Virus record (IMG/VR): IMGVR_UViG_3300005676_000004
From: a virus
Length of the DNA: 64,000 nucleotides
Direction: 5' to 3' (one strand)
Under the pieces are notes generated by a model. That model had not been told where the DNA came from. It did no database searches and saw only the letters and a list, made by a program, of their open reading frames with translations. A program made the translations under genes and the position numbers. Shown piece by piece: positions 3,570-58,389 of the stretch; position 1 is the first letter of the stretch; every line of letters begins with the position of its first letter.

Positions 3570-3579
3570 CCAAATGTTT

Positions 3580-36298: not shown

Positions 36299-36703
36299 AT
36301 GAACATTACAGAGCGGCAGAACGTTAACTCCAAGAAAAATGCCGAGGTATTGGAAAATAATAAAGTTGATCATGTTGTAGAAGAGATGGAAGAACGTTAT
36401 CCACAGATGACAGCCGAGTTCAAACGAATACAACGAGAGCAATATGCACTATTCTGTCGGAAACAGAAAAACTATGGCCCTCACAACATTTCAATGGGTA
36501 CCCCACTTGACACAGAAGAAGATATACGATTTTCTCTTCAGGGTTTGTTCTTTAGATTGAATGACAAGATCAATCGTTTTAAGCAGATGGTATGTTTTGG
36601 TTCTGAGGATGCAGTGGGAGAATCATTGGCTGATACATTCAAAGACATTTCGGTGTACGGTATAATTGCGCAACTAGTACAGAATGGAAAATGGGGTAAA
36701 TAA
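36299..36703 (+). CDS. DUF1599 / nucleotide-modification-associated domain protein
   Basis: KQKNYG, RLNDKINR, ESLADTFKDISVYGII. Confidence 0.75.
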   Translation: MNITERQNVNSKKNAEVLENNKVDHVVEEMEERYPQMTAEFKRIQREQYALFCRKQKNYGPHNISMGTPLDTEEDIRFSLQGLFFRLNDKINRFKQMVCFGSEDAVGESLADTFKDISVYGIIAQLVQNGKWGK

Positions 36704-40784: not shown

Positions 40785-40799
40785 TTTGGAGATATGTGC

Positions 40800-42209: not shown

Positions 42210-42213
42210 TAAT

Positions 42214-43551
42214 TTGGAAAATGATATGAGTATGACAATACATAAGCCACTTTTAGTATTCTGCGGACCAGTGCTTACACGCTCAGGCTACGGAGAACAT
42301 TCACGTGATCTATTACGATCGCTGAGAGAAATGAATAAATTTGACATTAAAATAATGTCAATAAATTGGGGAAACACACCAATGGATGCGTTGAAACCCG
42401 ACGAGAATGAATTTGATAAATGGATTCTAGATTCGATATTAACGTCGGCATTGCAATCACGTCCCGACATCTTTATGCATTGCTCAGTTCCTTCGGAGTT
42501 CAATCCGATTGGAAATTTCAACGTAGGTATAACTGCGGGTATAGAGACGGATTTATGCTCTCCGGCGTGGATAGAGGGTTGTAACAGAATGCAGTTGGTT
42601 TTAGTTCCTTCTGAACATGCAAAATCTGTCTTTATGAACAGTACATTTGCTAAATTCAACAGGAACACGCACCAGCCGGAGGGGGAGTTAGCAATAACTA
42701 CTCAAATTGAGGTTCTACCAGAAGGCGTACGCCTCGATGTATTTGATGCTAGTTTGGTTTCTGAAACTAACTTCACCACTGCATTGAACGATCGGTTGCT
42801 AACTGATTTTAATTTCTTGTTTGTCGGTCATTGGTTGCCAGGTGACTTCGGTCAAGATAGAAAAGATGTATCTGGGTTAGTAATGCAGTTTATAAAGGCG
42901 TTTTCGTCAGAAACACCTGCTTCGGATAAGCCAGGATTGATTTTGAAAACGTGTGCGGGTACATTCTCAGTTACCGATCGTGATCTAGTAATCTCAAAGA
43001 TAAACTCTATACGATCAATGGCAAATATTCCTAGAGAACAGCAACCTAACATCTATCTTCTCCACGGCGACCTTACAGAAAATCAAATGGCTGAGTTGTA
43101 TAACCACGCGAAGGTTAAAGCATTCGTTTCATTCACAAAAGGTGAGGGGTACGGACGTCCGATTGCAGAGTTCATTCCTTCAGGAAAGCCAGTACTGGTT
43201 TCAGGGTGGTCTGGACATGTTGACTTCGTAAATCCAGCATTTCATCAGTATTTGCCTGGTGAATTGACCACAATTCATCCTAGCTCAGTCTGGAAAGGCG
43301 TTATAGAGCCAGAATCAAAGTGGTTTACAGTCAATTACGAACAATCTATTGAGATTATGAAAGATTGTTATAAGAATTACAAGAAATTTTTGACTAATTC
43401 TAAGAAGTCTGTGTCACAATTCAAGTTAAAGTTCTCTTTTGAAGCTATGCACGACAAGTTTATGGCAATTTTAGACCAAAAGACACCGAAGATGCCAGAA
43501 AAAGTTACAATTCAACTGCCAAAGTTAGTCAAACGAGAGGAAGTTGTATGA
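42214..43551 (+). CDS. GT-B glycosyltransferase (GT4-like)
   Basis: RSGYG; FTKGEGYGRPIAE. Confidence 0.85.
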   Translation: MENDMSMTIHKPLLVFCGPVLTRSGYGEHSRDLLRSLREMNKFDIKIMSINWGNTPMDALKPDENEFDKWILDSILTSALQSRPDIFMHCSVPSEFNPIGNFNVGITAGIETDLCSPAWIEGCNRMQLVLVPSEHAKSVFMNSTFAKFNRNTHQPEGELAITTQIEVLPEGVRLDVFDASLVSETNFTTALNDRLLTDFNFLFVGHWLPGDFGQDRKDVSGLVMQFIKAFSSETPASDKPGLILKTCAGTFSVTDRDLVISKINSIRSMANIPREQQPNIYLLHGDLTENQMAELYNHAKVKAFVSFTKGEGYGRPIAEFIPSGKPVLVSGWSGHVDFVNPAFHQYLPGELTTIHPSSVWKGVIEPESKWFTVNYEQSIEIMKDCYKNYKKFLTNSKKSVSQFKLKFSFEAMHDKFMAILDQKTPKMPEKVTIQLPKLVKREEVV

Positions 43552-44243
43552 AACTAGTGTATACAATAGCCGCATGTGACGAACATGAGGAGTTAACGCA
43601 ACTTTTGACGCAATTGACGAGTAAGACTCCGTTTGAGGATTATGCTATAGTCGTTGTTATTGATACTACCAAGATTAATGCACAGATGATGGCTACAGTT
43701 GCATACTTTTCAGTAAATCCGAAGATAGAGTTCGTAGATAACGCATTTAATGGAAATTTTTCAGATTTAAAAAATCTCATGAACAGTATGGCTACCAACT
43801 ACAACTGTAGATGGATTTTCAATATTGATGCTGATGAGACTCCAACTGATGAGTTTTTGCGCGATATAGAGCTTATCCTTAGTGCAGCAGATGATAGTGA
43901 CGTGGATGCAATATCAATACCTCGTGCAAATTATGTCCATGGTATAACGGACTATCACATCAATCGTTGGGGTTGGATCGTTGACACGCATGGAAGAATT
44001 AACTGGCCAGATTATCAAGTCAGATTGTATAGAAATTTACCACGATTAGTTTGGTCTGGCACCGTTCATGAGACACTTAGTGGGATAACACGACTATGGC
44101 CTCTGCCCGATAAAGAGATTCGTACTGACACCGGAGAGGCAACGACTCATCCACCTTTGTATTTCTTAAAGCATCCGAAGACAATTGAGCGGCAAGAACG
44201 GCAAAACAGTTTATATGCAGCAATGATTCACGGTACAGCGTAA
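43548..44243 (+). CDS. GT-A (GT2-like) glycosyltransferase
   Basis: WIFNIDADE; WPDYQVR; VHE. Confidence 0.8.
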   Translation: MKLVYTIAACDEHEELTQLLTQLTSKTPFEDYAIVVVIDTTKINAQMMATVAYFSVNPKIEFVDNAFNGNFSDLKNLMNSMATNYNCRWIFNIDADETPTDEFLRDIELILSAADDSDVDAISIPRANYVHGITDYHINRWGWIVDTHGRINWPDYQVRLYRNLPRLVWSGTVHETLSGITRLWPLPDKEIRTDTGEATTHPPLYFLKHPKTIERQERQNSLYAAMIHGTA

Positions 44244-45217
44244 TGAAGACAGCATTTGTCTCCGAGATTCCTTACTTTGGAAAGTTCACACGTGAACATC
44301 CGAACATGCGAGTAGAATTTGCATGGATGGTTCAACACGATGCTACGCATTTTCCAATAGGCAACTATCAACAAGTTGAAGGATTTGATGAGGTATACGT
44401 CATAATTCCGAAGGGTGAACTAACCCTTAATGCAGTTGGAGCTGATTTACTTGCAGTTTATCCACCAACTGATACCAATCCCGTGAAGAAGTTTCTGGGT
44501 GAAAATATAATCCAAGTACTCAAAGGGAAGAATGTAAAGGTTTTTATAATCCAAGAAGGCCCGACTACACTTTTCAACGACTGGAGTGTTGAGACGCAAA
44601 TGCTATGGTACAGTAACGTCATGCAAAGCGACGGTATCTGTTGCCATAATACAAGTGATGTACCTTTTTATGAAGGGCTTTTCAAGGGATTAATCCCAGT
44701 GACTGTTAAGAAGACAGTAATGATTGATACTCTCCTTAAGAAACTTCAACCCGTTGACACCACTGATACCGTTATCATAGGTGGAAATTTCTCCCGATGG
44801 TACGGCGGATTTCAGAGTTGGATAGTTGCATCTGAACTGGTTGATGATTTGAATACGGCAGCATTTGTTCAGACTTCTCACTCTACACGGTTTTCTGAAA
44901 ATTTATACTTGAATGTGTTACCACGAATGTCGTGGATTGACTGGATGGATAGACTACGCCAGTTTAAGTATGCCGTACACCTTATGCCGACAGTTGCTGC
45001 TGGAACGTTTAATTTGAACTGCGCATACTGGGGTATACCATGTATAGGTAATAAGAAAGTTGACACCCAGAGGGAGTGCTTCCCTCTCCTATCCGTTGAT
45101 CCAGAAGATGTTCTATCGGCAAGTATATTAGCGCAACGTCTCAGGAACGAGAAAGAATTTTATACTCAAGTATCCGAACATGCCAAGCGCATTGCTCGTG
45201 AAAAATTTTTAATGTAA
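44243..45217 (+). CDS. Probable glycosyltransferase-like protein
   Basis: Cluster context; AGTFNLNCAYWGIPCIG resembles a GT-B C-terminal motif. Confidence 0.5.
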   Translation: MKTAFVSEIPYFGKFTREHPNMRVEFAWMVQHDATHFPIGNYQQVEGFDEVYVIIPKGELTLNAVGADLLAVYPPTDTNPVKKFLGENIIQVLKGKNVKVFIIQEGPTTLFNDWSVETQMLWYSNVMQSDGICCHNTSDVPFYEGLFKGLIPVTVKKTVMIDTLLKKLQPVDTTDTVIIGGNFSRWYGGFQSWIVASELVDDLNTAAFVQTSHSTRFSENLYLNVLPRMSWIDWMDRLRQFKYAVHLMPTVAAGTFNLNCAYWGIPCIGNKKVDTQRECFPLLSVDPEDVLSASILAQRLRNEKEFYTQVSEHAKRIAREKFLM

Positions 45218-45220
45218 ACT

Positions 45221-46885
45221 ATGAAGAATAAGTTTCGTATTATAACTCCATCGTATAATAATGCGTTGTGGCTAGAGTACAACGTTGCATCTGTACTCAA
45301 TCAGACCTATGCAAATTGGGAATGGATATACATTGACGACTGCTCAACTGATGGTACGTATGATCTAGTTAAGAGCCTTGTTGATGACCCTAGGGTTACT
45401 ATTATCCGTAACGAGACTAATCTAGGCGCAATGTGGAACTACTTTGAGATAGGTCTCAGAGACATTGAGGATGATACTATAGTTGTTCATTTAGATGGTG
45501 ATGACTGGCTATTTGACATTCATGTCCTAGAACGACTCAATGATTACTACAACCAACACGATGTATGGATGACATATGGAAAGATGTACGTGTGGCGTGG
45601 GGCGGATTCCACCGTTGAAGAATCCACACCTCAGAATAGTCCTGCGCCCGAAATTGTAATGCAACGTCGTTCGTTTAGAGAAGACATTTGGCGGTACTCT
45701 CATCTACGCACATATAGAGCATTTCTATTGAAAGCTATTAATAAAGATGATATGATTGATCCAGTTACGAATGAGTTCTATTGGGAAGCAAGTGATCTAT
45801 CGTTTCAGTATCCATGTCTAGAGATGTCGGCTCCCGATAAGATAGGGTGTGTTGACTTTCCAACTTACGTATACAATGCGAATCCGCTTCAAACATCTAG
45901 GACATCAACTCGACAGCATTCATCTAGACATTGGGAGATTGAACAGTCTATCCGAGGCAAGAAGAGATACAGTAAGGGTATTGGCCTCGGTAAATTACCG
46001 CAAGTTAATATTCATGGCTATCAATACGATAGCGACACGATACCAACAAAATTTAGTATTGTCTACAACGCTACTACTAACACTGAATATGATGTAACGG
46101 TGTTCACTGATTTTGATATACCAAAGTATATTAATAATCCTTCTCTAGTTGGTGGACTGGTGATTGCAGACTTACATGAGACGCGAGAGTTTTCGGAAGA
46201 CCTTAATCGAATTTATGATCTAGTGTATGACAACTACTCTCTGTTTGATTGCATTATAACACACGACGAAAAGTTGTTAACGTTGCCGAATGCTAAACTA
46301 CGATTTATAGCATGGCGAACGCACCTGTATCGGTACGACGTAAATAAGCCAGTTATTCGTGACCCAATGGAAGGGCTGTATTGTTACCCAAAGTCACGGC
46401 AAGTATCTTGTGTGTCTTCAAATAAGGCATTTCTCCCCGGACATCATAAACGTCTAGAGTTCGTACATTGGATGCGCCATAATGCTCCGCACGTTGATAT
46501 GTATGGTCGCGGGTTCAACGCGGTAGAGCAGAAGCTCGATGCTTTGCGTGATTATCGTTTCTCGGTTGTTATAGAGAATGCAGTTAGACCTAACTGGATA
46601 ACTGAGAAGGTGACGGACTGTTTTATTACGGGCACGATACCGATCTATTATGGTGCTCCGAATATAGGGGATTACTTTGATTCAAACGGAATATTACAGT
46701 TTGCAACTGTTGAAGAACTCCAGCAAATTTTGCAGATGATTGAAACATCTGGAGAAGAGTTATATAGAGACAAAATTGAATCGGTTATGGAAAATTTTAA
46801 GCACGGGTTACATTATACGCTAACACTTGACAAGTGGTTTGATGTATACATTCGGCCTATTATATGTGGAGGTAAGCGTGGGTAA
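45221..46885 (+). CDS. Bifunctional GT2 plus GT10 (alpha-1,3-fucosyltransferase-like) protein
   Basis: IITPSYN...IDDCSTD...LDGDD; C-terminal YRFSVVIEN...ITEK...PIYYG. Confidence 0.82.
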   Translation: MKNKFRIITPSYNNALWLEYNVASVLNQTYANWEWIYIDDCSTDGTYDLVKSLVDDPRVTIIRNETNLGAMWNYFEIGLRDIEDDTIVVHLDGDDWLFDIHVLERLNDYYNQHDVWMTYGKMYVWRGADSTVEESTPQNSPAPEIVMQRRSFREDIWRYSHLRTYRAFLLKAINKDDMIDPVTNEFYWEASDLSFQYPCLEMSAPDKIGCVDFPTYVYNANPLQTSRTSTRQHSSRHWEIEQSIRGKKRYSKGIGLGKLPQVNIHGYQYDSDTIPTKFSIVYNATTNTEYDVTVFTDFDIPKYINNPSLVGGLVIADLHETREFSEDLNRIYDLVYDNYSLFDCIITHDEKLLTLPNAKLRFIAWRTHLYRYDVNKPVIRDPMEGLYCYPKSRQVSCVSSNKAFLPGHHKRLEFVHWMRHNAPHVDMYGRGFNAVEQKLDALRDYRFSVVIENAVRPNWITEKVTDCFITGTIPIYYGAPNIGDYFDSNGILQFATVEELQQILQMIETSGEELYRDKIESVMENFKHGLHYTLTLDKWFDVYIRPIICGGKRG

Positions 46886-47852
46886 GAGGGCACTGATCAC
46901 TGGTATAAACGGTCAAGATGGATCATATCTATCGGAGTTTTTACTTGAAAAAGGTTATGAAGTTCACGGTATACTGAAGCGAAATTCTGTATCCGAGAAT
47001 CAGACAGCTAGGCTGAACGATAATGTATTTGCAGATGTTCGCCTTCATTATGGTGACATGCTTGATATACCATCAATCATCGCGGCTATTAAGAAGAGTA
47101 AGCCAGATGAAATATACAATCTAGCGGCGCAATCACACGTTAGGATTTCATTTGATCAGCCGATCTATACAGCCATGGCTACTGGTTTAGGTGCGTTGAA
47201 TCTACTTGAATCTCTGATTTCAACTGATTACGCTGACTCTAAGGTGTATCAAGCAAGCTCATCGGAGATGTTTGGTAACTCTATTGATGCAGACATGTAT
47301 CAGCGAGAAACTACTCCAATGTATCCAGTGTCTCCGTATGGTTGCTCTAAGTTATTTGCCTATAACATCTCTCGCAACTACAGAAATTCTTACGGCATGT
47401 TCATATCAAATGGGATACTATTCAATCATGAGTCACCACGCCGTGGAACTAACTTCGTTACAAATAAGGTTGTGAAGGAAGCGGTTAAAATTTCTAAAGG
47501 ACTTTCGGATAAAGTTGTGTTAGGTAATTTACATGCACAGCGCGATTGGGGACACGCTAAAGACTACGTTAGGGCAATGTGGGAAATCTTACAGTTAGAC
47601 CAACCGGATGACTTCGTATGTGCAACTGGAATAACGCACACGGTTCAATATCTGTGTGAATATACGTTCTCATCATTGGGATTGGACTGGCGGGAATTTG
47701 TCAAAACTGACGCTGTATATCAACGACCAGAAGAACTTCATGCGCTTCGCGGTGATGCTACCAAACTGAAGATTAAGACTGGATGGTCGCCCGAATACAC
47801 GTTTGAAACAATGTTAGATGAAATGATTGATTATTGGAAAGGTGTATTATGA
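46878..47852 (+). CDS. gmd: GDP-mannose 4,6-dehydratase
   Basis: GINGQDGSYL, LAAQSHV, YQASSSE, SPYGCSK, FNHESP, RDWG. Confidence 0.95.
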   Translation: MGKRALITGINGQDGSYLSEFLLEKGYEVHGILKRNSVSENQTARLNDNVFADVRLHYGDMLDIPSIIAAIKKSKPDEIYNLAAQSHVRISFDQPIYTAMATGLGALNLLESLISTDYADSKVYQASSSEMFGNSIDADMYQRETTPMYPVSPYGCSKLFAYNISRNYRNSYGMFISNGILFNHESPRRGTNFVTNKVVKEAVKISKGLSDKVVLGNLHAQRDWGHAKDYVRAMWEILQLDQPDDFVCATGITHTVQYLCEYTFSSLGLDWREFVKTDAVYQRPEELHALRGDATKLKIKTGWSPEYTFETMLDEMIDYWKGVL

Positions 47853-48763
47853 GAGTATTAGTAACAGGCGGCAGTGGTCTCGTCGGTAAACATCTAGCCG
47901 AGCATGAGCCAACTTGGAACTACTTATCTTCGTTTGACGGAGACCTCCGAGATCGAAATACTGTGTGGGACATCTTTGAATTTTACCAACCGGATGCAGT
48001 TATACATCTAGCGGCGAAAGTTGGTGGTATCCAATCAAATAGCAGCCAACCGATGGACTACTTCACCGATAATGTTCTCATAAACACGAACGTAGTTCAA
48101 ACTGCCTTAGACTTTGGAGTTAGAAAGTTTGTAGGACTCATCTCATCATGCGCATACACCGACGTATCCCCGTCGTATCCTCTTCAGGAGAATCAGTTAT
48201 TTGAGGGTGAGCCGCACATGTTAAACTATGGATATGGTATGGCAAAACGTATGTTAGCTGCGCAGATAAAGATTGCTCGGCAACATCTAGGTAAAAATTT
48301 TTCATATCTCATTCCGTCAAATTTGTACGGGTTGTATGAGACTGGCGATATTAGTGTCAAGCATTTCGTCGGTGCTCTCATGGATAAGATCATACGTGCC
48401 GAGGAAGGCGACGGCATCGTAACATTATTTGGTGACGGAACACCGTTACGCCAGTTTACGTATGCGGAGGATGTTGCTAACATATTGCGGCGTGTAATTG
48501 AACAAGATGTCTCTGAGAATTTAAACGTTTCTATTGATGAAAACTTAACAATAGATCAGATAGCTAGGATAGCTGTATCCGTGAGTGATAATCCAAACCT
48601 AACTATTCAATACGATTCCAGTAAACCCAACGGGCAGTATCGCAAGGACATTGATACTACATTACTTAAGAAAGTATTTGGAGATTTCAAATTTACTCCG
48701 TATATTGAAGGTCTTAGAAAGACTTACAGATTTTACAAAAACAAATCACGTGATGAAAATTAA
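47849..48763 (+). CDS. fcl: GDP-L-fucose synthase family protein
   Basis: TGGSGLVG, HLAAKVGGI, YGMAKR, PSNLYG, DGTPLRQF. Confidence 0.88.
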   Translation: MRVLVTGGSGLVGKHLAEHEPTWNYLSSFDGDLRDRNTVWDIFEFYQPDAVIHLAAKVGGIQSNSSQPMDYFTDNVLINTNVVQTALDFGVRKFVGLISSCAYTDVSPSYPLQENQLFEGEPHMLNYGYGMAKRMLAAQIKIARQHLGKNFSYLIPSNLYGLYETGDISVKHFVGALMDKIIRAEEGDGIVTLFGDGTPLRQFTYAEDVANILRRVIEQDVSENLNVSIDENLTIDQIARIAVSVSDNPNLTIQYDSSKPNGQYRKDIDTTLLKKVFGDFKFTPYIEGLRKTYRFYKNKSRDEN

Positions 48764-48780
48764 CATAGAGGAATCGCTGC

Positions 48781-50130
48781 ATGGATAATAAGGGTGAAAT
48801 TCTTAATCTAGTTGAACAGTACATTAACACAAAGAACTCCCAGAAGTCATGGACTCCTGGGGAAGATTGGGTTCAATATTCAGGACCATATTTCAATGCA
48901 GAAGAGTATGTCGCTGCGGTTGATACGTTATTAAACGGGTGGTTTATTCTAGGTGAGAAGGGTAGAGAATTTGAAAATAAATTTTCTAAAATGTTAGGTA
49001 AGCAAGATGGTGTCTTTGTTAACTCGGGAAGTTCAGCTAACTTACTGATGGTGTCTATGCTACGCACACGACGTGGTGGCAACTTACCAGTGGGTAGTAA
49101 ATTTATTACCCCAGTAGTGTGCTTTCCGACCACGATAAATCCACTCATTCAGAATGGATTTAAGCCTGTCTTCGTTGATGTTGAACTCCCAAACCTAAAT
49201 CTTAACTTAGATCATGTTGAGAAACTTTTGGAGGAAGATACTGAGAAGGAGATTAAAGGTATCATATTTGCACATGTGCTCGGTAACCCCCCTGACATGG
49301 ACAGACTGATGTCTATTGTTGAGAAGTATAATTTGATCTATCTTGAAGACACGTGCGATGCTTTAGGTTCAAAGTGGGATGGTAAGCCGCTAGGTTCGTT
49401 CGGTAAACTTTCAACATGTTCATTCTTTCCTGCGCACCACATGACGACGGGGGAAGGTGGGTTCGTAGCTTGTAACTTACCTATGCACCGAATGGCGTTA
49501 GCGTCTCTTCGAGATTGGGGACGTGGGTGCTATTGCAATACAAAGAAGCCTGGTAACGTTATTGACGGAACTGCATGTGGTATGCGTCTGAACTCTTGGT
49601 TTAAAGATTATCCAGAGATTCAATACGACCATCGATATGTCTTTGAGGAAATTGGCTATAATCTCAAGCCAACCGAGATGCAAGCTGCGATGGGATTGGT
49701 TCAGATCACTAAACTTGATGAGATGCACGAGAGACGAAAACATAATTTTGCTAGAATGTATTCTATATTCGAACAATACTCTGAGTTCTTCCATCTGCCA
49801 TATTCTCTTGAGAAGGCAGACACGAGTTGGTTTGGATTTCTGCTGACACTTAAAGACGGTTGCCCATTTGATAAGAGTGAAATTGTTGACCATCTAGAGA
49901 GTGCAAAAATTCAAACTAGGTCGTACTTCACTGGCAATGCGTTGTTTCATCCAGCATATTCAACCATGTTCAAAGAACAGTATCCAGACCCAAAGAATCA
50001 GTTTCCAGTAGCCACTAAGACTACAAAGGATACATTCTTCACTGGTGTGTATCCTGGCATTACGGACGACCAGCTTGATTACATAAAAGTTGTAGTTGAC
50101 AACTTTATGTCAAAGTATACAGCGAAGTGA
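48781..50130 (+). CDS. rfbH: NDP-4-keto-6-deoxyhexose 3-dehydratase (RfbH/DdhC type)
   Basis: SFFPAHHMTTGEGG (His at the PLP-Lys position); WGRGCYC...CG cysteines; YDHRY...GYNLK. Confidence 0.85.
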   Translation: MDNKGEILNLVEQYINTKNSQKSWTPGEDWVQYSGPYFNAEEYVAAVDTLLNGWFILGEKGREFENKFSKMLGKQDGVFVNSGSSANLLMVSMLRTRRGGNLPVGSKFITPVVCFPTTINPLIQNGFKPVFVDVELPNLNLNLDHVEKLLEEDTEKEIKGIIFAHVLGNPPDMDRLMSIVEKYNLIYLEDTCDALGSKWDGKPLGSFGKLSTCSFFPAHHMTTGEGGFVACNLPMHRMALASLRDWGRGCYCNTKKPGNVIDGTACGMRLNSWFKDYPEIQYDHRYVFEEIGYNLKPTEMQAAMGLVQITKLDEMHERRKHNFARMYSIFEQYSEFFHLPYSLEKADTSWFGFLLTLKDGCPFDKSEIVDHLESAKIQTRSYFTGNALFHPAYSTMFKEQYPDPKNQFPVATKTTKDTFFTGVYPGITDDQLDYIKVVVDNFMSKYTAK

Positions 50131-50139
50131 TAGATTACT

Positions 50140-50991
50140 ATGCAATACGTTTCCTTCCAATCTCTAGGAGAGATAGGTAACATGTGTTCTCAGATGCAAC
50201 AGTTTGCATCATTATGTGCTGTTGCATCTGAGACTGGTCATGAGATACGTTTACCAGAATCGTCAAAAAGTCGTGGGTTCGGAATACGAATGTTTGATCT
50301 TCTTGACGTAGAACCTCAATATGAGCCGGATGAGTTCTTTCAGGGCTTTAAGCGTTTCAGACTTAACGAGAAGACACGCGTTGACGATAGAGTCTTTGGG
50401 TTAGATAGTAGCTATTCGTATTTCGTTGACGGGAGATTTGATCTCTTTACGTATTGGTACCCTAAACATGCTCAGCATGTTCTTGGATGGAATATACGCC
50501 CACAATTTGTAGAGAAGGCAAACGAGTTCATTCGGCGAGTTAAAGACTCGTATGAAACTAACGTAAGAGTGGTTGCAATGCATATACGTTTGGGTGACTA
50601 CCTTTTACCAGAGCATCACCATTTCGTTAGATTATGGCAGACTGATTACTACACCAAGGCGATGCAAGTAATAACGGAAAAGCATGAACATGTTAAATTC
50701 CTGATATTCAGCAACGACATTAAATGGTGTCGAGAGAATTTACTCCCCGACTCTTCAGATGAAGACTTTGTAGATACTAAAGATGACTGCTTAGATTTTG
50801 CAATAATGGCTAGCTGTGACGACATTATCATAGCGAATAGTTCGTTTAGCCTATGGGCTGCATTTATGAATAAGAATCCTGATAAGACTATAGTATGTCC
50901 GACGCAGTACTTGTATGAGTATAGTGAGTTTTCCCATATCAATGGTAACTACTATCCTAACGATTGGACGTCAATTAATATGGAGTTATGA
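50140..50991 (+). CDS. GT11 alpha-1,2-fucosyltransferase-like protein
   Basis: GNMCSQ, MHIRLGDY, IFSND, IANSSFSLWAA. Confidence 0.88.
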   Translation: MQYVSFQSLGEIGNMCSQMQQFASLCAVASETGHEIRLPESSKSRGFGIRMFDLLDVEPQYEPDEFFQGFKRFRLNEKTRVDDRVFGLDSSYSYFVDGRFDLFTYWYPKHAQHVLGWNIRPQFVEKANEFIRRVKDSYETNVRVVAMHIRLGDYLLPEHHHFVRLWQTDYYTKAMQVITEKHEHVKFLIFSNDIKWCRENLLPDSSDEDFVDTKDDCLDFAIMASCDDIIIANSSFSLWAAFMNKNPDKTIVCPTQYLYEYSEFSHINGNYYPNDWTSINMEL

Positions 50992-51980
50992 TTATGGTAG
51001 ATACGAAGATAGTATATGTCACAGGCTGTGCTGGATTTATCGGGTGCACGGTGGCAGAATTATGCCTCAATATGGGATGGTATGTTATTGGTGTTGATAA
51101 GATGACATACGCGTCATCGAATGATGCGGTTAAATATCTACAGCAGTTAGGTGAAGATAGATTTAAGATGCTAACGTGTGACATCAACGACCTAACGTTT
51201 CTGTACGATTGTGATTACATCATCAATTGTGCTGCTGAGACACACGTTGGAAATTCGATAGTAAATTCTGATGAGTTTATTCATTCAAATGTCCGAGGTG
51301 TTCATCACTTGTTAAAATTGCTTCGAGAGTATAGGCAAGAAAACGGCAAGACGCCAACACTACTTCATTTTAGTACTGATGAAGTGTATGGTGATATTCA
51401 GTCTGGATTCCACACTGAATCTGATATGCTTCGACCTTCAAATCCATACTCTGCAACGAAGGCTGCCGCTGATATGCTTATATTGGCTTGGAGTAGAACA
51501 TACGGAATTCCATACGTAATTGTTCGCCCGACAAACAACTATGGGATCGGTCAATATGCTGAGAAGCTAATTCCGAAAGCGGTAAAGTATCTTGGGCTAG
51601 GTAGGAAGATTCCTCTACATAACGGGGGGTCTCCCGTGCGGAGTTGGTTGCACGTGTATGACACTGGAGCTGCAATAATTGAGATAATACTGAATGGTGT
51701 TGTGAACGAAATTTTCAACATATCGGGTGGATTTGAACAGACTAATGAAGAGACTGTTCGTAAAATAATATCATGTTGGAATGACATTCACCGAGACAAT
51801 CCCGATATGATAGTTGAATATGAGTCGGTTGTCGATCTTGGAATACATCGCGAAGGCCAAGATGTTCGATATGCTCTTGATGACTCAAAACTACGTTCTC
51901 TAGGGTGGACCCCAGTCGTTAACTTTGACGACACTATTGGAAGTATAGTGGAATACTACAGTAACAAATTTTTGTGGTAA
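50988..51980 (+). CDS. rfbB: dTDP-glucose 4,6-dehydratase
   Basis: TGCAGFIG, AAETHV, STDEVYG, YSATKA, NNYG, RSWLHV. Confidence 0.88.
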   Translation: MIMVDTKIVYVTGCAGFIGCTVAELCLNMGWYVIGVDKMTYASSNDAVKYLQQLGEDRFKMLTCDINDLTFLYDCDYIINCAAETHVGNSIVNSDEFIHSNVRGVHHLLKLLREYRQENGKTPTLLHFSTDEVYGDIQSGFHTESDMLRPSNPYSATKAAADMLILAWSRTYGIPYVIVRPTNNYGIGQYAEKLIPKAVKYLGLGRKIPLHNGGSPVRSWLHVYDTGAAIIEIILNGVVNEIFNISGGFEQTNEETVRKIISCWNDIHRDNPDMIVEYESVVDLGIHREGQDVRYALDDSKLRSLGWTPVVNFDDTIGSIVEYYSNKFLW

Positions 51981-51987
51981 TACGAAA

Positions 51988-52209
51988 ATGAAATCACTAA
52001 CAGATAATACTCCGTTTAGCGGTAGAGCTATCTCATTAACGTTGCGAGTTGAGTTTCTTGATGAGTATATCAAGGAAGATGAGCTACACGTTGAAGTTAT
52101 AGGAGACTCTAGAATTGAACGTGTAAAACTTAATGCAGAGACATTTAAAGGTCGCTCCATTGGTGACGTCATCAATGAGTTGATACAACAACTTAATATT
52201 CGAGCTTAA
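51988..52209 (+). CDS. Hypothetical small protein
   Basis: 73-aa ORF abutting the next gene. Confidence 0.55.
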   Translation: MKSLTDNTPFSGRAISLTLRVEFLDEYIKEDELHVEVIGDSRIERVKLNAETFKGRSIGDVINELIQQLNIRA

Positions 52210-54179
52210 TGACGAAAGGTAATAAGATGACAGTCGCAGAAGCAATATTCGCGTTCCTTAAAGGTGCTGGCTTTGAAATTGGATTCACAGTTACGGGTGG
52301 TGGCGCGATGTTCCTTAATGAAGCACATCGAAAATCACAACTCTTGTCGGTACACCATCATCATGAACAAGCTGCGGCAATGGCTGCTGTTGGCTATTCA
52401 AAGTCTACACGGAAGCCGTCATTTGTAGTGTGTACAAGTGGGTGTGGATCAACTAATACGTTGACTGGGGTTCTTGATGCGTATCAAGATGGCGTTCCTG
52501 TCTTGTTTTTATCTGGAAATGCTAACGAACAGCAGTTAACAGAGACCCATATTAAAAACTACCCAACTATGCGAAAGTTAGGAGTTCAAGAAAATGATAT
52601 TAGACCGCTCGTCTTTTCCATTACTAAATGTGCATACACCATTACTTCCGCAGATGTTGGGGGAGAATATCTCGTTGAATTATTACAAATGTCCGTACGC
52701 TCCATGTTTCAGGGTAACCCTGGACCAGTTTGGATAGACGTCCCGTTAAATGTGCAGTCGTTACAAGTTGATACATCAATATTTCCAGAAGGAGATGATC
52801 GCTTCAATAGAGCTGGATTAATGACTAGAGACTCTTGCAATGATGTCAACAGAAGGATATTCAGCAAAGTTCCAGCGCAAAAATTACTTAACGCTATAGA
52901 CAAGATAACGAAATCGAAGAGACCGTTATTTCTAATTGGCAACGGCGCATATCAATGGCTTGAGTCCGCGCCATACAATGAAACTCATTTGAATCCAATT
53001 CCTAAAGTGTTTACGTATTTAACTGCTGGATATAGACGATTGCATGATCCAGATACACCCGGTCTAGGGGTCGTTGGTATAAAGGGAAATCGCGCTGCCA
53101 ACTATGCAATGCAACATTGTGATCTTCTAATAGTATTGGGTTGTTCATTATCTACTCCAGTTACTGGATATGACTTAAGTAAATGGATTCCAAACGCATC
53201 TCTTCTGGTAGTTGATGTCGACGACACCGGAACAAGTAAATATGTTTTCGATAAATGGGTTTCTGACAATATTTCCAACGGTAGAAAACCTGGTAGTGAT
53301 TTTCATGCTGATTTTTTGAGGCAAGATGTTAGTGCATTCATGGATGCCTTGCGTTGCTTTGTGCATCCAGAATTAGAGTTTAATTGGTCTCCGTGGAGAA
53401 AGTGGTGTCACGCGCTTGCACGTGAAATGCATATTGAAAGTGAACCACACACCCCAGAAGACGACGATGATTCAGCTTTGAACATCTATACGTTTTTAAA
53501 TTGGCTGAGTAATACAGTAAACGAAAGAACAGATGGTAAAATAACAACCATAGTATCGGATGCGGGCAGCGCATACTACACAGTTTCACAGGCGTTTGAC
53601 TTCGGCCCATGTACACGATATGTAACATCTGGTGCACAAGCCGATATGGGGTTTGCTATCCCCGCAGCAATCGGCGTCCAAGTCAGGCATTGGCCGAAAA
53701 GTAACGTACACCATACCATGGCTATAACTGGGGATGGGTCAATGCTTACAAATGTCCAAGAGCTTACAGTAGCTGGTGGTATGAATTTACCAATAAAATT
53801 TATTATACTAGATAACAATGGGTATCTATCCATACGAAACACTATGGACAAATTCTTTAATTCAAAATATTTCGGAACTGATTGTAACTCTGGACTAGCA
53901 TTGCCTACTGATTTTAAGTCCATAGCAGACATGGCGTCTCTTGCATATTACGAGGTCAATTTAGAAAATCTGTTTGACGAAGATACACGGCAGATTTTTT
54001 TGAATAATACTCCAGCACTTATAAGAGTACGTTGTCTGCAACAACAAGATATAATACCAACCGTAGCCTCGCGCACTATGGAGAACGGTGAAGTTGTATC
54101 TCAACCACTAGAAAATATGTATCCGTTCCTAGATACTATGCCGTCAATGTATGTACCACAAATTCCATCAAATGTTTAA
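52209..54179 (+). CDS. ThDP-dependent enzyme, acetolactate-synthase-like (YerE-type candidate)
   Basis: TGGGAMFL, HHEQAAAMAA, GADMG-like QADMGFAIP, GDGS...NN ThDP motif. Confidence 0.88.
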   Translation: MTKGNKMTVAEAIFAFLKGAGFEIGFTVTGGGAMFLNEAHRKSQLLSVHHHHEQAAAMAAVGYSKSTRKPSFVVCTSGCGSTNTLTGVLDAYQDGVPVLFLSGNANEQQLTETHIKNYPTMRKLGVQENDIRPLVFSITKCAYTITSADVGGEYLVELLQMSVRSMFQGNPGPVWIDVPLNVQSLQVDTSIFPEGDDRFNRAGLMTRDSCNDVNRRIFSKVPAQKLLNAIDKITKSKRPLFLIGNGAYQWLESAPYNETHLNPIPKVFTYLTAGYRRLHDPDTPGLGVVGIKGNRAANYAMQHCDLLIVLGCSLSTPVTGYDLSKWIPNASLLVVDVDDTGTSKYVFDKWVSDNISNGRKPGSDFHADFLRQDVSAFMDALRCFVHPELEFNWSPWRKWCHALAREMHIESEPHTPEDDDDSALNIYTFLNWLSNTVNERTDGKITTIVSDAGSAYYTVSQAFDFGPCTRYVTSGAQADMGFAIPAAIGVQVRHWPKSNVHHTMAITGDGSMLTNVQELTVAGGMNLPIKFIILDNNGYLSIRNTMDKFFNSKYFGTDCNSGLALPTDFKSIADMASLAYYEVNLENLFDEDTRQIFLNNTPALIRVRCLQQQDIIPTVASRTMENGEVVSQPLENMYPFLDTMPSMYVPQIPSNV

Positions 54180-55215
54180 GGATAACAAAATCATGGGAAA
54201 CTCAGAAATTAGAATTCAAGATGGTAGAACACATTTTGATGTTCAGAAACAAGTAAAGAAGAAGAAAACAATCACTGAGCTTCGTGAGATGCGACGTAAC
54301 GCTAGACCTATAACATGGATAACTGCGTACTCGTATCCAACTGCAACGGTTGCCGAGAGAGCAGACATTGATATGATCCTCGTTGGAGACTCAGGTGGAA
54401 TGGTTGAGCTAGGGTACAAGAGCACAAATCCAGTTACTATGGATGAGATGATTAGTATGTGTAAAGCCGTACGACGCGGCGCACCTAAAACATTTGTAGT
54501 CGGAGATATGCCTCAGGGGTCGTATGAGATTTCCGATGAAGATGCCGTTACAAACGCTCTTAGATTTATTAAAGAAGGTGATTGTGACGCTGTTAAATTG
54601 GAAGGCGGTGAGAGAGTTGCATCTCGTGTAAAGGCAATCCACAATGCTGGAATAATTGTTGTTGGACACTTGGGGCTAACTCCGCAGTCTGCACAATCAT
54701 TTGGGGGTTATCGAGTACAAGGACGGACAGTTGATGAGGTAAAGCAAATTAGACGCGATATGCGTTCACTTGAAGATAGCGGGGCAAGTATCATTCTCAT
54801 TGAAGCTACTCCATCTGCATGTGGTGTATATCTTTCGTTAGCAGCTCGTCCCGATACGATCGTCATGGGGATTGGGGCTGGTAGGGGGGTTCATGGGCAA
54901 CTAGCAATTTTTCATGATGTTGTTGGATTTTATCCAGACTTTAAACCGAAATTTATAAAGTCATTTATTCCCGACGTTATTGGACATTTCAATGATTGCG
55001 TAAAGATGGCTGAAAATACTAGGTTAGTTAATGATGCAGTAATTCCTGGGTTTGACGGTGTTTTGATGTTAACAACTTTAGCTGTTCGCGAATATGGCAA
55101 CCAAGTACGAAACAAGGCATTTCCATCTAATGAATACATCTATTCAAACAACGATGCCAATGAGGAAAGTATTATGGAACTGTGTAATCAGTTACCTGTG
55201 GCTCTACGTCTATGA
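54172..55215 (+). CDS. panB: Ketopantoate hydroxymethyltransferase-family protein (start uncertain)
   Basis: ITAY, ILVGDS.GM, GDMP.GSY, AVKLEGG, GHLGLTPQ, IGAG, FHD. Confidence 0.85.
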   Translation: MFKDNKIMGNSEIRIQDGRTHFDVQKQVKKKKTITELREMRRNARPITWITAYSYPTATVAERADIDMILVGDSGGMVELGYKSTNPVTMDEMISMCKAVRRGAPKTFVVGDMPQGSYEISDEDAVTNALRFIKEGDCDAVKLEGGERVASRVKAIHNAGIIVVGHLGLTPQSAQSFGGYRVQGRTVDEVKQIRRDMRSLEDSGASIILIEATPSACGVYLSLAARPDTIVMGIGAGRGVHGQLAIFHDVVGFYPDFKPKFIKSFIPDVIGHFNDCVKMAENTRLVNDAVIPGFDGVLMLTTLAVREYGNQVRNKAFPSNEYIYSNNDANEESIMELCNQLPVALRL

Positions 55216-56159
55216 TAATCGTAACTGGTGTGCGTGGCTACCTCGGTTCTCTTGTCTACGAGAAGCTAAAAAAAGATGGAAAACATACCGTTGTTGGTAT
55301 AAGTAGACAAGATGTTGACTTAGAAGACAATTACGAGGTATTGAAATTCTTTACAGCTCAAAATGACATTGAGAGAATTGAAACAGTGATTCACTGTGCA
55401 TCTGCTGGTAACTCCGTAACACCAACAGATGACTTCTCAATTATTCCAGCAAATGTTAAGATGATGCAAAACATTTTATCTTCTATAGACACATCTAATG
55501 TTAGATTCATCTTACCATCTTCTGGAGCTATGAGAAATCGGAGTTTCGCATTTCACATTGATGTGGAAGAATACTTACGTGTTCCAACTGATGCCTATGG
55601 GTTATCAAAATATTTGTGTTGGCAAATGGCAGTCAATTTACCGAATTTTCTAGGTATTGTTATCTATGGTTTGTTCGGGGACACCGAACCAGAGTATAGG
55701 TTCTTTAAGTCAGTTATAACAAACGCACTACGGGGCGATCCTATCTATGTTTATGACGCAACTAGCATTATGGACTTTGAGTATACACCGAATCTTGTAA
55801 ATTTTATAAGTGATGTTGCGGTTGATAATAGTTGGCAGGGAAAAGTTGAGGTATTCCGACCTGAGAGAGATTCTCTGTATGGACATGCCATTTGTATATC
55901 TGAAAAATGTTACGCATACAAACAGAAACTCATCAATAGCGGCGTATTAATAGAATCTAACCCATACTATGCTACTGGCGTAAGTTCTGTGAACTTCAGT
56001 GACAAATATAAACCGAAATTCAAGTCGTCGTATATTGCACAACGTAATGTATCTTTGCGTAACAGTATGTTAGGTGGGGCGAAACTTTTATCACTTGAAG
56101 AAGGAATTGATGAGATGATATGTAAACTTGCACCAACCATACTAGGAGTAGAAATATGA
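55212..56159 (+). CDS. NAD-dependent epimerase/reductase (SDR)
   Basis: TGVRGYLG, YGLSK. Confidence 0.85.
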   Translation: MIIVTGVRGYLGSLVYEKLKKDGKHTVVGISRQDVDLEDNYEVLKFFTAQNDIERIETVIHCASAGNSVTPTDDFSIIPANVKMMQNILSSIDTSNVRFILPSSGAMRNRSFAFHIDVEEYLRVPTDAYGLSKYLCWQMAVNLPNFLGIVIYGLFGDTEPEYRFFKSVITNALRGDPIYVYDATSIMDFEYTPNLVNFISDVAVDNSWQGKVEVFRPERDSLYGHAICISEKCYAYKQKLINSGVLIESNPYYATGVSSVNFSDKYKPKFKSSYIAQRNVSLRNSMLGGAKLLSLEEGIDEMICKLAPTILGVEI

Positions 56160-57658
56160 TTCAACCTATAAGTTTTTGTATACCAGTAACTGATACCGAA
56201 ATTGAGTATCTTGAGTTGCTTTTAACTTCGTTGGAGAAATCAACGAAGGCAGATATGCATGAAGTAATTGTCTTCGTTGATTCAGTCCATCCAGACCCTA
56301 TTGTAGATATGTTGCGACAACGGAAGAACCTATTTTCGTCGTTTGTAATCATGACTCTAGGTAGTAGTATTCCCCATGCAATTGGATTGCAACAAAATAT
56401 GTCATTAATGGTGGATGACTGCAAAAATAGTATCTTCTGCCATCTACAATCAGATATGGTAGCTTCGCCTGGAATTGATGAAGTAATAACTAGATATTTG
56501 TATGAAGGAGAAGATACGTCAACACCTCATCTGAATAGAGTGGTGTCTCTTACACGGATAGAACCACCATTGCATCCACCAAGCCCCGAAAAGATAACTC
56601 ACGACTTTGGGAAAAATCCATCTGAGTTTAATAATTTGGGATGGGATTCCTTTGTGTCATTCGTTGATAATACTAAAGTTGCTAAGATAGCCAAAGAAGG
56701 GAAGAAGGAACTACTTGATCAATTTTTCTCTCCATTTGCGATGTTTAAGCAATCATACATTGACGTCGGGGGTTTCGATACTATATTCTTATGCTCACGG
56801 GAAGATTCTGACTTCATAGTTCGGCTTCATTCCCTTAACTATGAGCTAATACAGCCACTAGAGGCAATGGTGTATCATTTTACATGTGTTGCTTCGCGAG
56901 GAGTGAATTGGTTTGATAACGAGAGTGAAGACAACCCGTCTAACCCATCAAGCATATACCAGTGGGCAGATATGGCGGAGGTTCGTCGTTTTATTCGAAA
57001 ATGGGGAACATTTGCTCATAATATTGAATACACATCATTTTCACAGTTGCGTATTATACTTGATTCCGACGTAACTCCTATGGTGATTGACGCCCTCCTA
57101 GATATAGAGCCGTATTTCTACAATATTCAGATAGAAGGCCCACACTCTCAGTTCTTAGCACATTTTCTTAACGCTACATGTCAATTTAATTCGGAGTACT
57201 ATACTGCTCAAAAGAGAAAGAGAGACGTGAATTTGGGGTTCTATTATGGTTTTAGATTCAATAGTGTTTATCCTAACGTAGAACATAAACGTTTACCCCT
57301 TCTAAATTCAGAGTTGACGTTACCAGTTTCTGTATTGAAGAAGGTTATTAGTAGTAATCATATACGAGATTTTTATGAATCTGTCGGCACACTCCATTTA
57401 TTACCGAAGACGCATGAGCCTGGAGTATATGACATACAGATAGTTCCGAACTCTAAGATACCAAGTGTGCAATTGAATATTTTATCAACTGAAAATAGAA
57501 TTCCTTTTATCGTAAATCGTGATCGCGATACGGTATACGATGGAATTGGTAGTATATTCAATACTGTAATTCGAAGATATGAAAAAGATCATACACTGTC
57601 GGAATCATCAGAAGAATATGCAAATGTTATAGTTTCTTCGGCATATAACGACTGTTAG
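56156..57658 (+). CDS. GT2-like glycosyltransferase with C-terminal extension
   Basis: HLQSDM, GGFD...REDSD, YHF. Confidence 0.78.
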   Translation: MIQPISFCIPVTDTEIEYLELLLTSLEKSTKADMHEVIVFVDSVHPDPIVDMLRQRKNLFSSFVIMTLGSSIPHAIGLQQNMSLMVDDCKNSIFCHLQSDMVASPGIDEVITRYLYEGEDTSTPHLNRVVSLTRIEPPLHPPSPEKITHDFGKNPSEFNNLGWDSFVSFVDNTKVAKIAKEGKKELLDQFFSPFAMFKQSYIDVGGFDTIFLCSREDSDFIVRLHSLNYELIQPLEAMVYHFTCVASRGVNWFDNESEDNPSNPSSIYQWADMAEVRRFIRKWGTFAHNIEYTSFSQLRIILDSDVTPMVIDALLDIEPYFYNIQIEGPHSQFLAHFLNATCQFNSEYYTAQKRKRDVNLGFYYGFRFNSVYPNVEHKRLPLLNSELTLPVSVLKKVISSNHIRDFYESVGTLHLLPKTHEPGVYDIQIVPNSKIPSVQLNILSTENRIPFIVNRDRDTVYDGIGSIFNTVIRRYEKDHTLSESSEEYANVIVSSAYNDC

Positions 57659-57942: not shown

Positions 57943-58389
57943 ATGCAACCACGCAATACGTTTGAACATAGTCAAATTTCTAGTATAACAAATCCAGCGG
58001 CATCTGGTGTACTAGTATTTTGTGAACCATCTAAAGAATTTCTTTTAGTAAAGCGACATCCTAGGGCAAAGGCATACGCTAACACGTGGGCTATACCGGC
58101 GGGAGAAATTAACGTTGAGATATTAGAGTCTGTGGACAATTGTGCTCGAAGGGAATTTGAAGAAGAGACCACCGTCACGATACCAGATTCAGTACAACTA
58201 TGGTGTATTGATCGGTATCTCACTGATGACAATCGCGTGTTCTTTCTCTTCCTGTGGAAAGTCCAAAAGAAGTTTTTTGTTCGTATAAACAGTGAGCATA
58301 CCGAAGTTGGTTGGTTTTCGGGTGATAATTTACCTGAACCAATTACAGATCAAGTTAAGGATGCTATTCATCGGGTGTTGTCGCTATGA
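57943..58389 (+). CDS. NUDIX hydrolase
   Basis: WAIPAG...ESVDNCARREFEEET Nudix box; SEH...W. Confidence 0.85.
   Translation: MQPRNTFEHSQISSITNPAASGVLVFCEPSKEFLLVKRHPRAKAYANTWAIPAGEINVEILESVDNCARREFEEETTVTIPDSVQLWCIDRYLTDDNRVFFLFLWKVQKKFFVRINSEHTEVGWFSGDNLPEPITDQVKDAIHRVLSL

Follow-up and report, generated by a model that had tools for sequence, protein, structure and literature searches.

A PanB paralogue beside a YerE-like lyase in a large T4-like phage: a proposed donor-making enzyme for an acyl-branched 3,6-dideoxyhexose

In the published scheme for how acyl-branched sugars are made, an aldolase forms a hydroxylated 2-oxo acid, a YerE-like lyase that depends on thiamine diphosphate (ThDP) couples this acid to CDP-3,6-dideoxy-4-ketoglucose, and a reductase completes the side chain (Steitz et al. 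2022, PMC9306805). The scheme covers erwiniose and caryophyllose, and the enzymes involved are the aldolase pair ErwI/ErwJ, the lyase ErwE, and the reductase ErwF of Pectobacterium atrosepticum and MMAR_2331/2332 of Mycobacterium marinum. ErwE refuses pyruvate and takes 4-hydroxy-2-oxobutanoate, and for erwiniose the order of the steps was tested and the donor was found to be built first (PMC9306805). Aldolases of the HpcH/HpaI type, and related ones, have been shown or proposed to be the donor makers for ErwE, MMAR_2332, and MyGE (PMC9306805). In the pathway to yersiniose A (DdhA-D, YerE, and YerF of Yersinia pseudotuberculosis), YerE takes pyruvate directly and there is no donor maker. Here we describe a viral gene cluster in which a homologue of PanB stands between a YerE-like lyase and a reductase. 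The cluster is found at positions 48781-57658 of a 64 kb stretch of DNA (the window), which is the final 64 kb (minus strand) of the IMG/VR virus record IMGVR_UViG_3300005676_000004, a record of 253,401 bp that is rated complete by CheckV.

The cluster is a tightly packed plus-strand block that encodes, in order, an RfbH/E1-like dehydratase, a GT11-family glycosyltransferase (GT), an RmlB-like dehydratase, a 73-residue open reading frame (ORF), the ThDP enzyme, the PanB homologue, a short-chain dehydrogenase/reductase (SDR), and a GT2-like glycosyltransferase (Table 1). From the RmlB-like dehydratase gene through to the GT2-like gene, neighboring genes overlap or abut, with overlaps of 4 nt at the PanB/SDR and SDR/GT2-like junctions. 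The ThDP and PanB genes overlap by 29 nt if the first ATG is used, or are separated by 13 nt if translation begins at Met15 (position 54193), which is probably the true start, as implied by the 340-residue database protein P0005. A first-pass annotation of this DNA had described the ThDP gene, panB, and the SDR gene as packed behind rfbH and rfbB, and all of the genes it named were found in that arrangement on the plus strand; it had missed the GT11 gene, the 73-residue ORF, and the coupled GT2-like gene.

We propose, with moderate confidence, that the product of this cluster is an acyl-branched 3,6-dideoxyhexose, and that in its pathway the PanB paralogue hydroxymethylates a free 2-oxo acid that serves as the donor for the lyase. 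The RmlB-like 4,6-dehydratase would convert a host-made nucleoside diphosphate (NDP)-glucose to NDP-4-keto-6-deoxyglucose, and the E1/RfbH-type dehydratase would convert the latter to an NDP-3,6-dideoxy-4-ketohexose with the assumed help of a host reductase. PanB enzymes attach a C1 unit to the β-carbon of a 2-oxo acid in an aldol-type addition. In the proposed pathway the paralogue would add a C1 unit, from 5,10-methylene-tetrahydrofolate or formaldehyde, to the β-carbon of a free 2-oxo acid to form a 4-hydroxy-2-oxo acid; in the simplest case pyruvate would be converted to 4-hydroxy-2-oxobutanoate. The YerE-like lyase would decarboxylate this donor and add the acyl anion equivalent to the C4 ketone of the sugar, the SDR would reduce the side-chain ketone, and the coupled GT2-like enzyme would transfer the branched sugar. 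Every one of these reactions, together with the donor, the nucleotide, and the target of the glycan, is what we infer from the genes and their surroundings. The analysis itself shows what the genes are, that their linkage is conserved, that this PanB is a paralogue, and that its slot can be filled by an aldolase. It is very probable that the paralogue works in this sugar module, and there is a reasonable case that its task is to make the donor and not to edit the sugar; that the donor is 4-hydroxy-2-oxobutanoate is a tentative suggestion.

By analogy with the erwiniose/caryophyllose scheme, PanB would stand here in the role of the pyruvate aldolase (ErwI, MMAR_2331). Both systems have keto-hexose genes, a YerE-like lyase with an adjacent donor-building enzyme, a glycosyltransferase, and a reductase that uses NAD(P)H, and the substrate of ErwE is the expected product of hydroxymethylating pyruvate. 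They differ in that the donor would be built here by a PanB-type hydroxymethyltransferase with a C1 unit from folate or formaldehyde, whereas the published route uses a pyruvate aldolase and an aldehyde. The system in the window is also phage-encoded and has an RmlB-like 4,6-dehydratase and neither a nucleotidyltransferase nor an E3 reductase. With the pathway to yersiniose A it shares the E1/RfbH step, the ThDP-dependent branching at C4, and the side-chain reductase; it differs from that pathway in that PanB is placed between lyase and reductase. Some of the PanB-less sister loci in phages, with the ThDP gene directly before the SDR gene, resemble true equivalents of YerE/YerF. The repurposing of PanB for a branched-sugar pathway, as suggested by the first-pass annotation, is supported by its separate clade, its linkage to YerE-like genes, and the missing pantothenate pathway, all described below. 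The claim of new chemistry was an overstatement, since the combination of a donor maker, a YerE-like lyase, and a reductase has been published (PMC9306805); the new part is the use of a PanB-type enzyme within that scheme.

The closest database relatives of the window PanB are a large set of proteins of ~309 residues (53-60% identity) that are scattered over Acidobacteriota, Bacteroidota, Cloacimonadota, Spirochaetota, Elusimicrobiota, the candidate phyla radiation (CPR) of bacteria, and the DPANN archaea. As judged from its phylogeny, which the first-pass annotation had suggested as a check, the enzyme is a diverged paralogue that lies outside canonical PanB, and not a housekeeping PanB. In a FastTree phylogeny of 154 rows, all 105 ThDP-linked PanBs and 36 unlinked cellular ones fall in a clade of 142 rows (support 100) that excludes all 11 panC-linked PanBs. 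An IQ-TREE phylogeny of 72 sequences also sets the paralogue clade apart from the panC-linked PanBs, with a Shimodaira-Hasegawa-like approximate likelihood ratio test (SH-aLRT) value of 95. Within the clade of 142 rows, 60 form a virus-only subclade and 82 a mixed one, to which the window gene belongs. Three carrier genomes (G001, G002, and G005) hold a separate canonical panB with a full match to the Pfam model, and this gene adjoins panC in G001 and G005; the Falkowbacteria and Pacearchaeota (CPR/DPANN) carriers have the paralogue only and no panC.

It is very improbable that this gene is an ordinary pantothenate auxiliary metabolic gene (AMG) that makes ketopantoate to raise the supply of coenzyme A in the host, with its position in a sugar cluster being incidental. 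The protein does retain all of the catalytic residues and scores above the NCBI equivalog cutoffs for PanB (235 bits for TIGR00222, cutoff 207.55, and 282.7 bits for NF001452, cutoff 272), and a viral "pantoate transferase" has been read in this way in a viromics study (PMC8940887). However, no panC, panD, panE/ApbA, or serine hydroxymethyltransferase gene was found across the whole 253,401-bp phage record, so that the absence of panC, panD, and panE reported by the first-pass annotation for the window holds for the entire record. The clade lies apart from every panC-linked PanB, the gene is translationally coupled to the ThDP and SDR genes, the neighbor of PanB in viral loci is nearly always a ThDP gene and rarely panC, and there are CPR and DPANN carriers without panC. 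With some carriers keeping a panB of their own and others having no panC, the enzyme is not part of a pantothenate pathway, and the earlier advice that it should not be annotated as a pantothenate AMG stands.

A search of a cultured-phage database for PanB returned only cellular-type panB-panC regions or unannotated contigs, and these matches were set aside. One of them (L078, MW495066.1 257372-270070), in a record named Microcystis phage MaAM05, has a canonical panB and panC beside pxpA, sufB, and sufC. Its content looks cellular rather than phage, and the record may be mis-assembled or misassigned.

The first-pass annotation had also suggested looking for co-occurrence with YerE-like genes in polysaccharide loci, and this was found in both viral and cellular DNA. 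A search with paralogue motifs gave 24 viral contigs, and PanB has a ThDP gene next to it in 24/24; in the viral loci found with canonical-type motifs the ThDP gene is adjacent in 72/80, panC takes its place in 5/80, and neither is present in 3/80. Combined, the ThDP gene stands beside PanB in 96 of 104 viral loci (103 contigs, one contig being in both sets; IMG/VR contigs may include some cellular DNA), and panC is near PanB in only 5 of the 104. Most of the viral loci also carry RfbH (up to 72% identical), an RmlB-like dehydratase (homologues 55-65% identical in most viral loci with the module), and an SDR, and the SDR homologue directly follows PanB in many loci. Three larger viral contigs were checked and found to encode Gp23, and one of these is a complete genome of 197 kb with terminal repeats. 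In cellular loci a ThDP gene lies within ~2.5 kb of PanB in 25/66, and the median gap between the two genes is 70 bp (ORF cluster, 24 cellular loci). The gene order in the best-resolved bacterial loci is glucose-1-phosphate cytidylyltransferase, 4,6-dehydratase, RfbH, ThDP, PanB, and SDR. The cytidylyltransferase model TIGR02623 gives 337 bits in L051 and 367 bits in L015 (both above the cutoff) and 281.5 bits in L016 (below it); the CDP-glucose 4,6-dehydratase scores 494 bits in L015 and RfbH scores 741 bits in L051. These genes point to the CDP-3,6-dideoxy-4-ketohexose route, which feeds YerE and ErwE with their acceptor sugar. Several genomes that carry the paralogue have no YerE-like gene.

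The ThDP enzyme contains the domains PF02776, PF00205, and PF02775. Its best match in the PDB is 8rph (207.6 bits, full length), compared with no more than 140.7 bits for acetolactate synthases, and it falls far under the cutoff of every NCBIfam acetolactate-synthase equivalog. It also matches 5ahk (162 bits), which we take to be PpYerE. The 8rph structure is that of JanthE, a YerE-like lyase (PMC12188165), and the two proteins have the same three-domain architecture. They are about one-third identical (by eye), and the window enzyme differs from JanthE in having the canonical GDG motif, visible in the alignment with 8rph, where JanthE has CDG, and in having extra insertions (656 residues versus about 590-620). 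We consider the ThDP enzyme to be YerE-like and closest to the ketone-accepting subclass, and we predict that it functions as a C4-branching carboligase. Genes for a 3,6-dideoxy-4-keto-sugar and a reductase accompany the ThDP gene in the window, in the viral loci, and in the bacterial loci with the CDP pathway.

The RfbH homologue is of the E1 type, matching Yersinia E1 (3bcx) with 316 bits versus 170 bits for ColD. It has a histidine in the position of the lysine that binds pyridoxal 5'-phosphate (PAHH motif), and four of its cysteines align with those of 3bcx, with an insertion that lengthens the last spacing; these presumably hold an iron-sulfur cluster. The 4,6-dehydratase scores only 74 bits against the CDP-type model and 285 bits against TIGR01181, which is under the cutoff of 365. 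The translation of the SDR gene shows TGxxGxxG and YxxxK motifs, and we propose that this enzyme is the side-chain ketoreductase, in the role of YerF/ErwF.

An alternative explanation for these neighbors is that the ThDP enzyme, PanB, and the SDR make a free small molecule, such as an acyloin or a hydroxy acid, that is a non-carbohydrate substituent of the glycan or is unrelated to the NDP-sugar, and that RfbH is close by merely because all of these genes share a glycan locus. In some ten cellular loci (among them L012, L014, L026, and L027) RfbH was not detected within 10 kb of the ThDP and PanB genes, YerE-like enzymes also catalyze aldehyde carboligations in vitro (PMC12247030), and the SDR is only weakly similar to characterized nucleotide-sugar enzymes. 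We regard this explanation as quite improbable, since most viral loci with the pair also encode an RfbH/E1 enzyme and a 4,6-dehydratase, the best-resolved bacterial loci keep a strict order from the transferase to the SDR, the nearest relatives of the ThDP enzyme are in the ketone-accepting YerE-like subclass, and the product of E1 has no other obvious consumer in the cluster.

The position of PanB can be compared with that of other genes in a converse search. A scan with an alignment of the ThDP enzyme returned 462 viral stretches that encode a relative of the window's lyase, and the best 80 of the 462 (those nearest to the window's ThDP gene) were examined. PanB is nearby in 53 of these, and the other 27 keep the context of RfbH, the RmlB-like dehydratase, and the SDR. 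In 8 of the 27 loci without PanB, an HpcH/HpaI aldolase (PF03328, 32.5 bits, cutoff 25) is found just after the ThDP gene or close downstream of it, and the aldolase and PanB occur together in none of the loci examined. The window itself has no aldolase and has the PanB paralogue in that position. Because aldolases of this type, or related to it, are the demonstrated or proposed makers of 4-hydroxy-2-oxo-acid donors, PanB occupies the donor-making slot. In 11 of the 27 loci (L237:6762-9386; L224; L247-L249 and L253-L258 near 3400-4600) a DJ-1/PfpI gene is found with a conserved 226-residue ORF that matches no known family, and 2 of these 11 also have an Ldh_2-family 2-hydroxy-acid dehydrogenase. 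A 2-oxo-acid donor may also be made in other ways by the DJ-1/PfpI and Ldh_2 sets.

In the loci with an HpcH/HpaI aldolase (L209:6780-9086; L212, L226, L230, L231, and L243), the aldolase gene is often followed by a gene for a 379-residue protein that has LdpA-like regions and a pair of 4Fe-4S ferredoxin motifs, next to which is a conserved ORF of 118-126 residues. Two loci with a YerE-like ThDP gene, L255 and L259, are labeled GVMAG (giant-virus metagenome bins). Either nucleocytoviruses too may have a branched-sugar lyase, or these two may be misbinned phage DNA.

The PanB homologue has the fold of the canonical enzyme. The AlphaFold2 model (pLDDT 83.7, pTM 0.84), when searched with Foldseek, gave target-normalized TM scores of 0.90-0.93 to 3vav, 1o68, and 1m3u, which identifies it as a PanB TIM barrel. 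The match to PF02548 (cutoff 28.7 bits) covers model positions 1-234 of 259 only, and PHROGs has no family for this protein. In tblastn and BLAST alignments its identity to canonical PanB, the enzyme known from Escherichia coli (1m3u) and Mycobacterium tuberculosis (1oy0), is ~38-40%. The equivalents of Asp45, Ser46, Asp84, Lys112, Glu114, His136, and Glu181 of the E. coli enzyme are all present, and these positions are kept in 142/142 rows of the clade, save for one change of Ser to Thr; we take them, from the literature on 1m3u, to be the Mg-binding, carboxylate-binding, and catalytic residues. The paralogue differs from canonical PanB in its separate clade, in the lack of a panC/panE context, in occurring as an extra copy beside a housekeeping panB, and in its sequence. 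The whole clade has a C-terminal extension of roughly 25-40 residues with a conserved terminal Trp, and has Leu for I212 (a position in the donor pocket), Ile for V214, Gly for A83, and Leu for V179 (E. coli numbering, approximate). In the subclade of the window gene, L47 is further replaced by Gly, L58 by Asn, and F87 by Gln, where the virus-only subclade and canonical PanB have Leu, Leu/Ile, and Phe/Tyr; with these differences the two subclades may use different substrates. PanB from E. coli hydroxymethylates many 2-oxo acids, and variants at I202/I212 shift its scope (PMC7611260). When overexpressed, PanB partly rescues a homoserine auxotroph via 4-hydroxy-2-oxobutanoate (bioRxiv 10.1101/2025.02.17.638773).

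The same final product could be reached in another order, in which the lyase adds an acetyl (or another acyl) group from pyruvate and PanB then hydroxymethylates the carbon α to the side-chain ketone of the NDP-sugar, with the α-hydroxy-ketone chelating Mg in place of a 2-oxo acid. Gene content cannot tell the two orders apart, PanB is usually downstream of the ThDP gene, and a bulkier substrate could be fitted with the help of the C-terminal extension and of the residues that are changed close to the active site. However, the equivalents of Ser46 and Lys112, which bind the carboxylate, are invariant apart from the single Thr in 142 rows. Close members of the clade are found in genomes without a YerE-like gene and in methionine operons, where the substrate cannot be a branched NDP-sugar. 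The donor of erwiniose is built first, and in the sister loci PanB is replaced by an HpcH/HpaI aldolase, a member of a family whose products are free 4-hydroxy-2-oxo acids. Editing after branching is therefore unlikely. Of the two options left by the first-pass annotation, the synthesis of a hydroxymethylated 2-oxo-acid donor is favored because the residues for the 2-oxo acid and Mg are kept, clade members occur in YerE-less genomes, and an aldolase is found in the same slot; hydroxymethylation of the keto-sugar is the less likely one.

Several observations weigh against the donor-making pathway. Some viral loci pass straight from the ThDP gene to the SDR gene with no donor-making gene, so that PanB is not obligatory for the module. 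There is no ThDP neighbor in 41/66 cellular loci, and the clade is therefore not exclusively linked to sugars. The loci were gathered by motif search, which biases their frequencies, and the canonical outgroup in the PanB trees is small (11 sequences). The PanB equivalog cutoffs are passed, and the sequence is thus compatible with ketopantoate synthesis; the enzymatic roles of all clade members are predictions from sequence and context. The phage dehydratase is RmlB-like, whereas its bacterial counterparts are of the CDP type. No sugar-1-phosphate nucleotidyltransferase was found in the phage genome, nor was an E3-type (RfbI/AscD-type) reductase, as there is no NAD_binding_1 (ferredoxin-NADP reductase type) domain in the genome, and a host reductase is presumed for the E1 step for this reason. 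SpnQ works with general cellular reductases. Neither a naturally occurring sugar whose C4 side chain derives from hydroxymethylation nor a link of a PanB-type enzyme to YerE-like lyases or branched sugars was found in the searchable literature, which leaves out Krug et al. 2024 (Angew. e202403535; >200 YerE-like clusters), a paper that may mention such genes.

A wider reading, plausible but short of probable, is that the PanB-like clade is an unrecognized family of 2-oxo-acid (probably pyruvate) hydroxymethyltransferases that feed YerE-like lyases and give an undescribed 3,6-dideoxyhexose of the 4-C-(1,3-dihydroxypropyl) type. Large T4-like phages would widely encode this pathway and would swap the donor cassette (PanB, HpcH aldolase, or the DJ-1/Ldh_2 sets) so that a glycan on the virion or the infected cell has varied side chains. 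If this is true, viromics has been systematically wrong in its assignment of an abundant viral AMG, the "pantoate transferase". As the arrangement recurs in ~100 other phage contigs, viral PanB genes are probably being misread as vitamin genes, and caution is warranted when a viral "pantoate transferase" is reported as a pantothenate/coenzyme A AMG, as it has been in at least one viromics study (PMC8940887), the genes of which may belong to this clade. A large and widely scattered family of PanB paralogues, now named a vitamin B5 enzyme by annotation pipelines, likely has a new role. The pathway predicts a new branched-chain sugar and would widen the donor repertoire of the YerE-like carboligases, a group in demand for the biocatalytic synthesis of tertiary alcohols; a 2025 review lists viruses among the unexplored sources of such enzymes. 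With 462 viral stretches encoding a relative of the lyase, and most of the 80 examined having it beside RfbH, RmlB-like, and SDR genes, pathways for exotic branched deoxysugars appear to be common in large T4-like phages. That the cassette beside the lyase is interchangeable suggests that diversity in the side chains of phage-made glycans is under selection.

In four cellular loci (L059:6715-10990, L017:9992-12663, L021, and L011) the paralogue is beside genes of the methionine pathway, the order in L059 being a MetY-like protein (Cys_Met_Meta_PP), a MetX-like hydrolase, MetW, and the paralogue. The keto acid of homoserine is 4-hydroxy-2-oxobutanoate, and the clade may also feed or salvage homoserine. 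A role as a substitute for the aspartate route to homoserine in the carriers of these operons was rejected, as homoserine dehydrogenase was present in 4 of the 5 genomes checked. A conserved protein of ~420 residues with no Pfam family adjoins the paralogue in L033, L035, L039, L040, L050, and L063, which are from Spirochaetota, Elusimicrobiota, and Desulfosporosinus; a ThDP gene is also present in L040, and genes for the α and β subunits of an electron-transfer flavoprotein are nearby in the two Spirochaetota loci L039 and L063. Viral locus L127 matches the window cluster in RfbH (72% identical), GDP-mannose 4,6-dehydratase (66%), the RmlB-like dehydratase (60%), and GT11 (44%). Its ThDP enzyme is only 25% identical to that of the window and its PanB belongs to the other subclade, and this comparison suggests that the lyase and PanB have been swapped as a unit between related phages.

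A phosphonate pathway (phosphoenolpyruvate mutase and phosphonopyruvate decarboxylase) was also considered for the pair and rejected, as the protein scores 287 bits as PanB versus 20 bits as phosphoenolpyruvate mutase, and the ThDP enzyme is of the three-domain acetolactate synthase/YerE type. Among longer forms of PanB, only the classical PanB-PanE and PanB-PanC fusions were found, mostly eukaryotic, with no fusion to a ThDP enzyme or an SDR. An apparent ThDP-PanB fusion of 924 residues in L043 is an artifact in which a run of N joins two genes, and an aminotransferase-PanB "fusion" (P0184) is a broken gene call with canonical-type motifs.

The source virus is, as judged from the T4-type Gp23 major capsid protein encoded by the 253,401-bp record, a large T4-like (jumbo) phage. 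There are 33 tRNA genes in the window, and almost every gene is on a single strand. The cluster is the downstream part of an uninterrupted plus-strand glycan locus at 40794-57658, the features of which are collected in Table 1.

Table 1. Genes of the glycan locus in the window
Feature	Position	Strand	Evidence or remark
GT4-like glycosyltransferase	40794-42209	+	Pfam
GT-like protein, 445 residues	42214-43551	+	phrog_2170 glycosyltransferase
GT2 glycosyltransferase	43548-44243	+	Pfam
324-residue product, function unassigned	44243-45217	+	upstream glycosyltransferase block
GT2+GT10 fusion	45221-46885	+	Pfam
GDP-mannose 4,6-dehydratase	46827-47852	+	PF16363 384 bits; TIGR01472 381 bits (cutoff 415)
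Fcl-like epimerase/reductase	47834-48763	+	NF047922 GDP-fucose synthase 160 bits, below cutoff
RfbH/E1-type pyridoxamine 5'-phosphate-dependent NDP-4-keto-6-deoxyhexose 3-dehydratase (predicted)	48781-50130	+	NF011936 440 bits (cutoff 423)
GT11-family glycosyltransferase	50140-50991	+	PF01531 95.6 bits
RmlB-like NDP-glucose 4,6-dehydratase	50988-51980	+	TIGR01181
73-residue ORF	51988-52210	+	stop overlaps ThDP start (TAATG)
YerE-like ThDP-dependent lyase (predicted)	52209-54179	+	three ThDP domains; phrog_11199
PanB paralogue	54151-55215	+	PF02548 287 bits
Extended SDR	55212-56159	+	PF01370 66.5 bits; phrog_540 nucleotide-sugar epimerase
GT2-like glycosyltransferase	56156-57658	+	phage GT2 clusters in the ESM Atlas: feature score 0.98, structure TM 0.69-0.78

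The GT4 gene and the gene for the 445-residue protein are again found beside the module in the related phage contigs L092/L100. The GDP-mannose 4,6-dehydratase and the Fcl-like protein are a probable GDP-L-fucose branch of the same glycan locus. Genes of the GT10 and GT11 types, which are fucosyltransferase families, are found near this pair (45221-48763, 50140-50991), and fucose, or a 6-deoxyhexose related to it, is probably a further component of the phage glycan. The 73-residue ORF has no Pfam or PHROG match and is missing from some related loci, in which the dehydratase gene abuts the ThDP gene. The gene at 56156-57658 likewise has no Pfam or PHROG match; its product is predicted to be soluble and is a candidate for the transferase of the branched sugar. 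No transmembrane segments were predicted in any protein of the glycan locus, and no flippase, polymerase, or membrane-bound initiating transferase was found in the cluster. Direct glycosylation of a soluble target, such as the proteins of the virion, thus fits better than a lipid-linked polysaccharide, and we infer a target of this kind. A scan of the cluster for sigma-70 promoters and terminators gave results no better than those for shuffled sequence. The glycan locus is flanked by metabolic genes, namely those for S-adenosylmethionine synthetase (36703-37938), a PD-(D/E)XK nuclease (38519-39478), and a protein of the inosine monophosphate dehydrogenase/GMP-reductase family (39475-40539), and by genes for a NUDIX hydrolase (57943-58389) and a peptide deformylase (61826-62620).

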